NCBI GenBank assembly: GCA_965214785.1
Contig: OZ243975.1
Span: 708,914 to 772,913 of the forward strand
Direction of reading: 5' to 3'
Source of the DNA: Arenicellales bacterium
GTDB lineage: Bacteria; Pseudomonadota; Gammaproteobacteria; Arenicellales; JAJDZL01
Length of the DNA: 64,000 nt
The first letter of the stretch is position 1, and every line of letters begins with the position of its first letter. Positions 47,138 to 49,491 of the stretch are shown here, in pieces. Under the pieces are notes generated by a model. That model was given only the letters and a program-made list of their open reading frames with translations. It was not told the origin of the DNA and searched no databases. The position numbers were made by a program, and so were the translations under genes.

Positions 47138-47486
47138 TTTTTATACAACCATTTTTACGCAATAGCTTGCCGATAAAACTCAATTAAACCAATTTACAAA
47201 AAAGTAATTGCTCGTCTTTATGGAAATAGGTGTTGTATCGTAAGGGCAAATACATTAAGCCAATGCAATCGATCATCATTTCTACGACTTGGTTAATTTA
47301 TTCTTGCAGGTAAAGGAATTGACAACAAAATTGAATCGTACAACGGCCGATCAGTACGTTGAAAGTGTTGGTTCTTGTATAGCATCGACTCGGCATGTGC
47401 AGGCTATGCCAAGGTAGCTTCTATCAAGTCATTGCCTGGCTTGGAATTGTGTCTTTTGAAATATTAAAGTGTCCAAGGTTTTAGAA

Positions 47487-47783
47487 TCATTGACCGGAAC
47501 AGCTGTTTATCTTTTTTCGGAGTGAATCAACCTGTTCGCGATTGAGTCTCGTTAACTCGACAATCTCATCGGATTTCATACCCCTTAGCAGCAATTTTGC
47601 CGCGACCTCTTCATGACCTTTTTCAATGCCTTGTTCAATGCCTTGTTCAATACCTTTTTCAATGCCTTGTTCAATGCCTTTTTTTAAACCTTCTTCCTGA
47701 AGTTCATCTATAGCTGACATCACCATCTGTTTTTCCTCTGGCGTTCTGGTTTCAAAACTCGATTTCTCTAAACGGTCGGCCAA
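47487..47783 (-). CDS. Stand-alone copy of the Rpn-like C-terminal tail domain (RpnS-like small protein), long-repeat variant
   Basis: 98-aa ORF with a TTG start and no obvious SD. MADRLEKSSFETRTPEEKQMVMSAIDELQEEGLKK(GIEQ/GIEK)x5 GHEEVAAKLLLRGMKSDEIVELTRLNREQVDSLRKKINSCSGQ is homologous to the last roughly 75 aa of the 48313-49245 protein. Confidence 0.5.
   Translation of the reverse strand: MADRLEKSSFETRTPEEKQMVMSAIDELQEEGLKKGIEQGIEKGIEQGIEQGIEKGHEEVAAKLLLRGMKSDEIVELTRLNREQVDSLRKKINSCSGQ
47619..47690 (-). repeat. 12-bp in-frame coding repeat (GIEQ/GIEK units), six units
   Basis: Plus strand: tttttcaatgcc ttgttcaatgcc ttgttcaatacc tttttcaatgcc ttgttcaatgcc tttttttaaacc. The paralogous copy at 48051-48074 has two units. 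The parental gene has EEGR-type units instead. Confidence 0.9.
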
Positions 47784-47918
47784 TGCGAGTGAATTGTTGA
47801 CTTTCGTATAAAGTCGACTTGAAATGTACAGGCTTTTACCAAAAGGCAGCTTCTATTGAAACGCTACTTATCTTGGAATTGTGTCTTTTGGAATATCGAA
47901 GTGTCCAAGGTTTTAGAA

Positions 47919-48179
47919 TCATTGTCCGGAAGAGCCGTTTATCTTTTTTCGGAGTGAATCAACCTGTTCGCGATTGAGTCTCGTTAACTCGACAATCTCA
48001 TCGGATTTCATACCCCTTAGCAGCAATTTTGCCGCGACCTCTTCATGACCTTTTTCAATGCCTTGTTCAATGCCTTCTTTCCGACCTTCTTCCCGAAGTT
48101 CATCTATAGCGGACATCACCATCTGTTTTTCCTCTGACGTTCTGGTTTCAAAACTCGATTTCTCAAAACGGTCGGCCAA
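47919..48179 (-). CDS. Stand-alone copy of the Rpn-like C-terminal tail domain (RpnS-like small protein), short-repeat variant
   Basis: 86-aa ORF with a TTG start. The sequence is MADRFEKSSFETRTSEEKQMVMSAIDELREEGRKEGIEQGIEKGHEEVAAKLLLRGMKSDEIVELTRLNREQVDSLRKKINGSSGQ. Confidence 0.5.
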   Translation of the reverse strand: MADRFEKSSFETRTSEEKQMVMSAIDELREEGRKEGIEQGIEKGHEEVAAKLLLRGMKSDEIVELTRLNREQVDSLRKKINGSSGQ

Positions 48180-48312
48180 TGCGAGTGAATTGTTGACTTT
48201 CGTATAAAGTCGACTTGAAATGTACAGGCTTTTACCAAGGCAGCTTCTATCGAAACGCTACTTATCTTGGAATTGTGTCTTTTGGAATATCGAAGTGTCC
48301 AAGGTTTTCGAA

Positions 48313-49245
48313 TTATTGACCGGAAGAGCCGTTTATCCTTTTTCGGAGTGAATCGACTTGTTTGCGGTTGAGTCTCGTTAACTCGACAATCTCATCAGAC
48401 TTCATACCCTTTAGCAGCAATTTCGCCGCGACCTCTTCTCGACCTTCTTCCCGACCTTCTTCCCGAAGTTCATCTATAGCTGACATCACCATCTGTTTTT
48501 CCTCTGGCGTTCTGGTTTCCAAACTCAATAACTCTGGTAGTTTTATACCCTTATTGTAACTGTAAATATACTTCAACAACAATTTCACCATGCGTTGGCG
48601 GTCTTGCTCAGGCACAAACTTGATGCGCTCCATCAACTCCTGCCAATCGCTTGCGTCATAGTCGCGCACTATCGTCATCGCTCTGACTACAGCATCGATG
48701 TTGGTCTCTTTTACCTGTCTTTGCCTATCGAGCTCGAGCAGATCAATCAACACAGACTTGAAATTTACTGCATATTCACTCAACACATCTAAGTGTTCAC
48801 TCGATATGCTGGTAAAGTGATCGCGGAATTCGATTGATGTACGCTTGTCTGATGCCGCATGGCGAACCACAATCGGTATGATCAGCGACGTAAAGTCATC
48901 GTCCAAATACCGCAGAAACTGATATTGCGCAAGCTGTTTTACCAACCCCTTGTCTTTAAAGCTCTTGTGCTCAAACATCAGGATAATGCTCGCCATGCGA
49001 TGGGAGTCTTTTAGCTTTACACGGTACTCCAGATCGCTTCTTTTTATATTGAATTCATCCGCAGATATAACCGGAGTTGCCAACTCCAGCGTTGACCAAT
49101 CGACAATTTCATATAACGCTTTCGGGCAGGCGATTCTCATTAAGGTCAAAAGATAGGCAATGATCTTGAATACATCATAGAAGAAGTCATTATGGATATT
49201 GGAATCTGGCTTGTCAGGTGACGATGAAGATTTGGACTTTGACAT
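48313..49245 (-). CDS. Rpn/YhgA-like recombination-promoting nuclease family protein (PD-(D/E)XK, Transposase_31-like)
   Basis: The ATG at 49245 gives a 310-aa protein.

MSKSKSSSSPDKPDSNIHNDFFYDVF...VDWSTLEL...KRSDLEYRVKL...ASIILMFEHKSFKDKG...IIPIVVRHA parallels E. coli RpnA (PHDAVFKQF...SDVLY...IEHQS).

The C-terminal tail has EEGR repeats and ends ...RINGSSGQ. The ORF-track start at 49371 adds 42 unlikely residues. Confidence 0.75.
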   Translation of the reverse strand: MSKSKSSSSPDKPDSNIHNDFFYDVFKIIAYLLTLMRIACPKALYEIVDWSTLELATPVISADEFNIKRSDLEYRVKLKDSHRMASIILMFEHKSFKDKGLVKQLAQYQFLRYLDDDFTSLIIPIVVRHAASDKRTSIEFRDHFTSISSEHLDVLSEYAVNFKSVLIDLLELDRQRQVKETNIDAVVRAMTIVRDYDASDWQELMERIKFVPEQDRQRMVKLLLKYIYSYNKGIKLPELLSLETRTPEEKQMVMSAIDELREEGREEGREEVAAKLLLKGMKSDEIVELTRLNRKQVDSLRKRINGSSGQ

Positions 49246-49491
49246 GATAAACACCTCAAAAAGTAGAGAAAACGAATGGCAGACATTGCTGACTTTATTG
49301 GTGATAAAGCGGCAATGCAAATATGAAACGAACCGCTGCACGAATGCCTGGCACCTGCGCGCCTGCGTCACTCGTGAGTAATGATCTTTGCTTGCCAGTA
49401 TAGCATTGGCGGGTAGAAATACAAAAAAATGGGCGAAAAAAGTTTTTTACATCGATTTTAGCTTGTGCTTGGCGCATTATGAAAGGTTCGA

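Follow-up and report, generated by a model that had tools for sequence, protein, structure and literature searches.

What becomes of a nuclease gene when its own C-terminal tail is encoded again, twice, directly downstream of it? This question is raised by a locus on the minus strand of a 64,000-nucleotide (nt) stretch of contig OZ243975.1 from an Arenicellales bacterium (GenBank assembly GCA_965214785.1), analysed at full length and called the window here. The locus consists of rpnL, a gene for a 310-amino-acid (aa) protein of the Rpn/YhgA family, followed by two small genes, rpnSs1 and rpnSs2, each of which repeats only the tail of that protein. The preferred answer, to which a probability of roughly 0.6 is assigned, is that this is an rpnL/rpnS locus of the Escherichia coli type with two expressed rpnSs-like paralogues, in which the nuclease is re-tailed by recombination.

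The long gene and its internal start

48313-49245, minus strand: rpnL, 310-aa Rpn/YhgA-family PD-(D/E)XK nuclease gene, an open reading frame (ORF) from ATG 49245 with GAGGTG upstream
48313-48492, minus strand: predicted intragenic rpnS, the 59-aa tail with two EEGR repeats, from internal ATG 48492 with GAGGA at 48500-48504
48429-48466, minus strand: period-12 (four-amino-acid) repeat tract of the parental tail, 3.2 copies according to Tandem Repeats Finder

The first-pass annotation, made from the letters of the window, described a 310-aa Rpn protein of the PD-(D/E)XK type on the minus strand with the motifs HNDFF, RSDLEY and MFEHKS. The ORF and the three motifs are present as described, and the profile search that it proposed returned PF04754 at an E-value of 1.9e-16 (60.7 bits for a cut-off of 21), covering residues 18-217 and positions 3-201 of the 203 in the profile. 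The model TIGR01784 scored 38.4 bits, below its whole-protein cut-off of 52.1. Read from the furthest GTG (49371), the ORF would extend over 48313-49371. All 15 aligned homologues begin at the position equivalent to ATG 49245 and share the N-terminus of rpnL; by this alignment the start is ATG 49245, and GTG 49371 is merely the furthest possible one.

Within the same alignment, D71 of RSDLEY and E92 and K94 of FEHKS are invariant in the 15 homologues. They correspond to D63, E82 and Q84 of RpnA, whose mutation abolishes activity (Kingston et al. 2017, PMC5350276). The protein can be aligned with E. coli RpnE over its whole length, with SDL facing SDV, FEHK facing IEHQ and the internal-start regions coinciding. 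The product of the long gene is an Rpn/YhgA PD-(D/E)XK protein and a predicted nuclease. Its closest relatives are encoded by Arenicellales metagenome-assembled genomes (37-59% identity); a phmmer search of the full 310-aa protein against the PDB sequences gave no match.

An ATG at 48492 lies in frame inside rpnL with GAGGA 7 nt upstream. The corresponding Met252 is invariant in the 15 homologues, and in the alignment with E. coli RpnE it falls in the internal-start region, so the in-frame internal start that had been proposed at the equivalent place is borne out. The 25-nt string that joins Shine-Dalgarno sequence and start, CAGAGGAAAAACAGATGGTGATGTC (GAGGA, 7 nt, ATG), is found at 48482-48506 in the parental copy and occurs exactly three times in the window, for a shuffle expectation of 0.00. 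The parental tail matches the C-terminus of TIGR01784. Four-amino-acid repeats begin about 10 residues past the internal Met in the window tails, and their number varies across the homologues too. Judged by these signals, an internal start with a ribosome-binding site precedes a variable tail, as in RpnL/RpnS.

Two stand-alone tail genes formed by tandem duplication

48165-48534, minus strand: repeat unit 0, the last 74 codons of rpnL with the 3' flank as far as the duplication junction, about 148 nt (repeat families D1-D3, alignments)
47769-48164, minus strand: repeat unit 1, junction, Shine-Dalgarno sequence, rpnSs1 and 3' flank (repeat families, alignments)
47366-47768, minus strand: repeat unit 2, junction, Shine-Dalgarno sequence, rpnSs2 and a diverged 3' flank (alignments)
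47919-48122, minus strand: rpnSs1, 67 aa, four repeats (EEGR KEGI EQGI EKGH), ORF from ATG 48122, gene call P0101 of the source genome
48049-48081, minus strand: period-12 repeat tract of rpnSs1 (Tandem Repeats Finder)
47487-47726, minus strand: rpnSs2, 79 aa, seven repeats, ORF from ATG 47726, gene call P0103 of the source genome
47616-47696, minus strand: period-12 repeat tract of rpnSs2 (Tandem Repeats Finder)

A repeat search recovered a family of direct repeats in three copies, whose starts lie 432 and 394 nt apart, the figures first reported for the units. Two copies are 91% and 80% identical to the reference copy, and DNA identity among the tail repeats is 80-95%. The period-12 tract is present in each of the three tails at different lengths. 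In a MAFFT alignment of the three units, the sequence gagttt(g/t)gaaaccagaacg marks the beginning of homology; in the long gene it precedes the internal in-frame ATG by about 30 nt. The homology takes in the tail with its stop codon and extends about 195 nt into the 3' flank. The Shine-Dalgarno sequence and the ATG are identical in all copies. The earlier outline of the units, a tail of about 75 codons with some 130 bp of flank, is right as to the copied tail; its extents are now widened to include the ribosome-binding site, the internal start and the longer flank. The alignment shows a tandem duplication of Shine-Dalgarno sequence, internal start, tail and flank, by which small genes predicted to be autonomous were made: with its junction about 30 nt ahead of the internal ATG, each copy would be such a gene, of 67 or 79 aa.

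Counted from TTG, the small ORFs measure 86 aa (47919-48179) and 98 aa (47487-47783), which are the lengths given at first. The ORFs are intact, but this start is not retained. The TTG has neither a Shine-Dalgarno sequence nor a purine-rich stretch ahead of it, whereas the ATG of MVMSAIDEL (48122 and 47726) follows GAGGA at the ideal spacing of 7 nt, and the gene calls P0101 and P0103 also use the ATG. The N-terminal extension MADR(F/L)EKSSFETRT was therefore rejected, and the conserved ATG is taken as the most likely start of the small genes.

The repeated pieces had been read as copies of the Rpn C-terminal tail, and both profile and identity agree with this. The small ORFs match the C-terminal end of TIGR01784, an Rpn family model, at positions 201-272 of 273 (E 9e-9 for rpnSs1 and 3e-8 for rpnSs2). 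The two proteins are 93% identical to each other and 85% to the window Rpn over the aligned tail, the next relative being at 56%. Related full-length proteins carry PF27070 (HTH_Rpn_C), a newer model, in precomputed annotation. A family profile of the tail weakly matches the helix-turn-helix of gamma-delta resolvase (E 0.03). The AlphaFold2 model of the 79-aa protein (pLDDT 71) consists of a long helix, residues 3-47, followed by two short ones; this predicted fold fits the published three-helix bundle of RpnAS, in which the repeats lengthen helix 1. As a separate observation, P0103 and P0101 match the 90-position PADLOC candidate defence family PDLC01084, "C3a178 putative invertase" (E 2e-10 and 2e-4), a match that may be due in part to the repeats.

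A fourth, decayed tail copy had been placed at 47340-47395. This stretch is the distal 3' flank of the third unit, diverged to about 70% identity, and the sequence beyond it is no more like a tail than shuffled sequence is, with a Smith-Waterman score of 17 for 16.3 +/- 2.1 in shuffles. The candidate was rejected.

The spacers were also inspected for signals of their own:

48272-48301, minus strand: TGGACA-18-CACAAT, a weak site of the 3' flank that resembles a promoter (9 of 12 matches in a consensus scan), recurring at 47878-47907 and 47446-47475

In total, promoter-like sites are no more frequent than in shuffles, and this one, a lead at most, is conserved only because the flank is repeated. 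No conserved ORF was found in the spacers; the plus-strand ORFs of the two spacers are in different frames.

Tails differ between two nearly identical strains

The protein search with the small ORFs returned two genomes only, the window's own and a second strain, represented by contig ctg118799 (L082), with no third strain; the 25-nt Shine-Dalgarno-plus-start string gave 0 matches in the JGI metagenomes. L082 has the same gene order and the same three-copy layout. Its flanks are 99.1% identical to the window, without gaps, over 12 kb on both sides.

Against this constant background, the tails differ. Repeat counts, given in the order nuclease, first copy, second copy, are 7/8/2 in L082 and 2/4/7 in the window. 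The 7-repeat GIEQ/GIEK tail of the L082 nuclease resembles the distal stand-alone copy of the window; the distal L082 copy, for its part, is like the 2-repeat EEGR tail of the window nuclease. In the non-repeat sequence, tails at the same position differ by 5-6% (8-9 differences per 150 nt), compared with 0.9% in the flanks. Most variant sites in the tails are common to another copy in one or the other strain, which in such an alignment is the signature of gene conversion or unequal crossing-over and not of point mutation. Different repeat counts and mosaic sequence amid flanks of 99.1% identity therefore show, at the level of the two compared sequences, an ongoing reshuffling of tails among nuclease gene and stand-alone copies, at a rate well above that of change in the genome around them. 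The recombinational tail swapping suggested at the outset gains indirect support from this comparison.

Could a single tail have been mis-assembled into three copies? Tandem repeats of about 400 bp are prone to such errors, and the contig of the closest relative breaks within its first stand-alone copy. The copies of the window differ, however, by 5-20% and in repeat number, unlike collapsed or expanded repeats. Moreover, L082 is an independent assembly from another sample, in which the same layout recurs with other repeat counts between the same flanks. An artefact, which the first-pass annotation had named as a way in which its reading could fail, is therefore very unlikely.

The arrangement is known from E. 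coli

Separately encoded tails had been thought undescribed. This does not hold: Zhong et al. 2023 (PNAS, PMC10400941) reported stand-alone RpnS genes ("rpnSs") downstream of rpn genes, with differing numbers of a four-amino-acid repeat. Named examples are ypaA (rpnESs) after rpnE and rpnCSs after rpnC, and the RpnESs product was detected by tagging (PMC10400941). In E. coli, RpnL is a toxic PD-(D/E)XK DNA endonuclease and RpnS, translated from an internal start, its antitoxin; RpnS is generally the more abundant of the two (PMC10400941). Each downstream copy derives from its own upstream rpn gene, and rpnSs genes can disappear through deletion or by becoming fused to the N-terminal domain of rpn; it was suggested that RpnL itself may initiate the recombination that makes them (PMC10400941). 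RpnAS (PDB 7th0) forms a bundle of three helices, the first of which is lengthened by the four-residue repeats, and RpnCS with one extra repeat fails to counteract RpnC unless the long protein has that repeat too (PMC10400941). A literature search for later work on Rpn returned only the 2023 paper and its commentary.

The anatomy of rpnE-ypaA was checked in strain K-12 and six other E. coli strains. In K-12, the duplicate ypaA starts at the Shine-Dalgarno sequence of the internal start, 12 nt past the rpnE stop, and has one additional 12-nt repeat. The NCBI annotation pipeline calls such genes "Rpn/YhgA-type helix-turn-helix domain-containing protein". The arrangement of an rpn gene with stand-alone tail genes is thus already described, and the window is an instance of it with two copies in a new lineage.

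Stand-alone tails do not match the neighbouring nuclease in repeat number

In the 17 loci where both tails could be read, all 20 intact stand-alone copies are longer or shorter, by whole repeats, than the tail of the nuclease beside them. The loci are the window, L082, L010, L012, L014, L026, L043, L053, L071, L077, L083 and L087-L092. Ten of the 17 lie outside E. coli, and seven are E. coli strains at rpnE-ypaA, where the numbers of extra repeats are 0/1, 5/1, 1/4, 8/6, 5/2, 8/2 and 5/0. Downstream copies may be systematically non-cognate, or the pattern may be chance; it is only suggestive, since both repeat numbers vary widely.

This bears on a role first proposed for the small genes, extra antitoxin dosage: they would add RpnS that neutralises the resident RpnL, raising the ratio of antitoxin to toxin or uncoupling its supply from transcription of rpnL. 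Each copy has a perfect Shine-Dalgarno sequence, an ATG and an intact ORF, its tail shares 85-93% identity with that of the parent outside the repeats, and in E. coli RpnESs is made and RpnS generally exceeds RpnL (PMC10400941). The repeat numbers argue otherwise. The small proteins have four and seven repeats for two in the nuclease, and a single added repeat abolished neutralisation of RpnC unless present in both partners (PMC10400941); were the same rule to apply in the window, the proteins with 4 and 7 repeats would not be antitoxins of the 2-repeat nuclease. Furthermore, none of the stand-alone copies in the 17 loci matches its neighbour in length, and the nuclease gene already encodes a matched RpnS internally. 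The dosage role is disfavoured and considered unlikely.

Distribution of tail-only copies

The proposed survey of related loci, done by tblastn with the tails, found tail-only copies downstream of rpn in 11 of 81. One copy each is present at L010, L012 and five Bacteroidota loci, and L014 has two, the first with an in-frame stop. L001 has one, which also keeps the Shine-Dalgarno sequence and the internal ATG of its parent; the contig ends inside it. This contig, of the closest relative (59% identical), breaks in the first stand-alone copy at 6940-7099 of L001, 36 nt past the rpn stop. Short-read assemblies probably break at such arrays, which may therefore be under-counted. L005 and L008 have decayed downstream copies. 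At L014 (5099-5960, Arenicellales chromosome OZ244840.1), it is the expanded EGFS tract of the first copy that is interrupted by the stop; the second copy is intact and encodes 88 aa. At the E. coli rpnE locus, never more than one stand-alone copy occurs among 5,420 complete genomes. The two tandem copies in the window and at L014 are a modest quantitative extension of the known arrangement.

A HMMER search with the 59-aa RpnS retrieved 59 clusters at E <= 1e-3, most of 50-130 aa, and 18 aligned cluster proteins matching RpnS mostly begin at or near the same Met. Three metagenomic proteins, P0105 (165 aa), P0107 (271 aa) and P0123 (197 aa), consist of two or three RpnS-like tails fused head to tail, with no nuclease domain.

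One alternative is that the copies are a neutral by-product. Duplication, perhaps promoted by the repeats or by Rpn, might have left functionless tail debris that is kept similar by conversion only. Degenerate or stop-containing copies (L005, L008, L014) speak for debris, as does the presence of stand-alone copies in only 11 of the 81 loci. In addition, the annotation of K-12 treats ypaA as a pseudogene, that of several other E. coli strains marks the corresponding ORFs as incomplete, and substitutions in the tails are too few for a firm dN/dS: Nei-Gojobori values for non-repeat codons run from 0.03 to 0.47, on 2-8 substitutions per pair and confounded by conversion. On the other side, all six tails of the two strains are intact despite many indels, every one of which is a multiple of 12 nt. 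In unit 2, about 93-95% of the coding part still agrees with the other units, compared with about 70% of the distal flank. The duplications in distant phyla are independent, and they always keep the internal start, the amount of upstream sequence carried being variable; and the RpnESs protein has been detected in E. coli (PMC10400941). Debris is a doubtful explanation.

A proposed history of the array

The preferred reading, an rpnL/rpnS locus with two expressed tail paralogues and recombinational re-tailing, can be put as a sequence of steps. A block made of the ribosome-binding site, the internal start, the tail ORF and about 195 nt of flank was duplicated in tandem, as the sequence shows. 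Since then the copies have diverged: 12-nt repeats coding for part of the long first helix were gained and lost (their numbers are now 2, 4 and 7), and gene conversion or unequal crossing-over took place among the three of them. RpnL would be a toxic endonuclease and the internal 59-aa, 2-repeat RpnS its cognate antitoxin. The stand-alone proteins are probably poor neutralisers of the resident nuclease because their helices differ in length, and they would persist as expressed paralogues. Recombination in the array would let a stand-alone tail replace the tail fused to the nuclease, which would change the pairing specificity of toxin and antitoxin.

Several observations weigh against this reading. 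The decayed or stop-containing copies at three loci indicate that such copies are not always maintained. The length mismatch could be due to chance (about p = 0.07 under a crude null of 13% equality), and the low dN/dS values, which would point to constraint, are affected by conversion from a parental tail that is itself under selection. Only two strains of the species enter the comparison. No convincing promoter or intrinsic terminator was found on the coding strand in the spacers; as there is no terminator, read-through from rpn into the small genes is possible. PF14261 (DUF4351) matches neither small ORF at E <= 1, nor any of 18 related small proteins at E <= 0.01. The confidence of the 79-aa model is moderate, and a Foldseek search with it returned only non-significant helix-turn-helix matches, without reaching RpnAS 7th0. 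The family profile does reach the RpnA chain of 7th0 in the right region, at an E-value of only 0.5.

A stronger form can be advanced tentatively, and at low odds: the array might serve a defence toxin-antitoxin as a bank of expressed tail cassettes for its diversification, with crossing-over or conversion re-tailing the nuclease and selection keeping the copies mismatched. Re-tailing with another helix length would reset which RpnS restrains the nuclease, allowing for example escape from a phage-encoded RpnS mimic, and the mismatched stand-alone copies would not themselves silence the resident nuclease. The mosaic of 2/4/7 and 7/8/2 and the mismatch in 20 of 20 copies are compatible with such a bank and are no proof of it.

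No new kind of system is revealed by the locus. It extends the arrangement of rpn with stand-alone RpnS to an uncultured marine gammaproteobacterial order, the Arenicellales, and shows that the tail-only gene can occur in two tandem copies. Near-identical strains with different nuclease tails, and the same tail types elsewhere in the array, amount to a natural experiment on two questions left by Zhong et al.: how repeat number and tail identity change, and whether the downstream copies take part. With tails of 2, 4, 7 and 8 repeats on an otherwise constant background, pairing specificity becomes directly testable. The strain comparison and the pattern of length mismatch deserve specialist attention; the category of the system is unchanged.

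Genomic context

47140-49572, minus strand: rpn module relative to an empty site (blastn against L084; homology ends at 49573 and resumes at 47139)

The module of about 2.4 kb lies between sdhC and ygfZ. In a related genome with a 64% identical YgfZ, the sdhC-ygfZ gap is empty (690 bp; L084 4309-5000). The gene order in the window and in L082 is sdhB-sdhA-sdhD, rpn, the two small genes, ygfZ, ftsB and eno. The neighbours sdhC and ygfZ are housekeeping genes, and no recognisable defence island surrounds the window locus. Its G+C content is not distinctive. An Rfam scan of 46.9-50.0 kb gave nothing beyond chance-level matches to eukaryotic long non-coding RNAs.

In another Arenicellales genome (L086 3553-4617, chromosome OZ243928.1), the sdhC-ygfZ gap holds a very divergent Rpn-like gene of 354 aa. 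Its product has TDL...TEHKS, GMQQ four-residue repeats and a precomputed match to PF27070 HTH_Rpn_C; tblastn detected no similarity between this gene and the window Rpn. The gap, which is empty in a closer relative, seems to be one in which rpn genes have landed repeatedly.

Elsewhere in the window, two ORFs were noted. The one at 12902-19885 on the plus strand, with 2,327 aa, is the longest by far. The other, at 55390-57036 on the minus strand, encodes 548 aa with 30% identity to the window SdhA (tblastn E 2e-59); its product is a putative flavoprotein paralogous to SdhA, possibly L-aspartate oxidase.

Comparison with known systems

The closest counterparts are rpnE-ypaA and rpnC-rpnCSs of E. 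coli, in which, likewise, an rpn gene has given rise to a tail-only paralogue immediately downstream of it and on the same strand. As in rpnE-ypaA, the duplicate begins at the Shine-Dalgarno sequence and internal start and differs by whole 12-nt repeats. The host is different, an Arenicellales gammaproteobacterium, and the copies are two in tandem, where E. coli rpnE never has more than one. A unit of the window carries about 195 nt of 3' flank, in contrast to a 12-nt spacer in E. coli. The nuclease has the canonical EHK, while RpnE has EHQ and is annotated as inactive. The tail of the window is, as a further difference, of the PF27070 (HTH_Rpn_C) type, with no match to PF14261, an annotation that stand-alone rpnSs genes carry in some species.

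With the intragenic RpnL/RpnS toxin-antitoxin and anti-phage system (PMC10400941), the locus shares the PF04754 domain and a conserved internal Met with its Shine-Dalgarno sequence. The distance from this Met to the repeats falls inside the reported range of 8-20 residues (PMC10400941), and the tail is predicted to form three helices with a long first one. The window locus differs in its position between sdhC and ygfZ, outside any recognisable defence island.

Partial copies that stand beside a full-length gene and can recombine into it are found in Neisseria pilE/pilS and in the orphan cdiA-CT/cdiI or rhs-CT modules. The orphan toxin-tip cassettes of CDI/Rhs loci are C-terminal fragments without promoter or start, each followed by its cognate immunity gene. 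The strain comparison suggests that similar exchange takes place in the window. The copies here are probably expressed and not silent, because they keep their own ribosome-binding site and start codon; there is no immunity gene, and exchange would alter an oligomerisation helix instead of an antigenic or toxic domain. The likeness to orphan CDI/Rhs modules, drawn in the first-pass annotation, is therefore loose: it holds for partial copies and exchange and fails for the start signals and the immunity gene, and an assignment to modules of that type was rejected.

Tandem arrays of whole rpn genes, as far as the main text of PMC10400941 describes its SI Fig. S1B, resemble the locus in arising by tandem direct duplication and not by transposition, whereas in the window only the last quarter of the gene and its flank are duplicated. 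Finally, the TAEL repeats of HsdS in EcoR124I and EcoR124II, in the form in which they are cited in PMC10400941, offer a parallel for the repeats themselves: there too, specificity depends on the number of times that a four-amino-acid unit is repeated within a helix. What that number sets in EcoR124I and EcoR124II, according to the same citation, is the DNA-recognition spacing of a type I restriction enzyme, and not the pairing of a toxin with its antitoxin.

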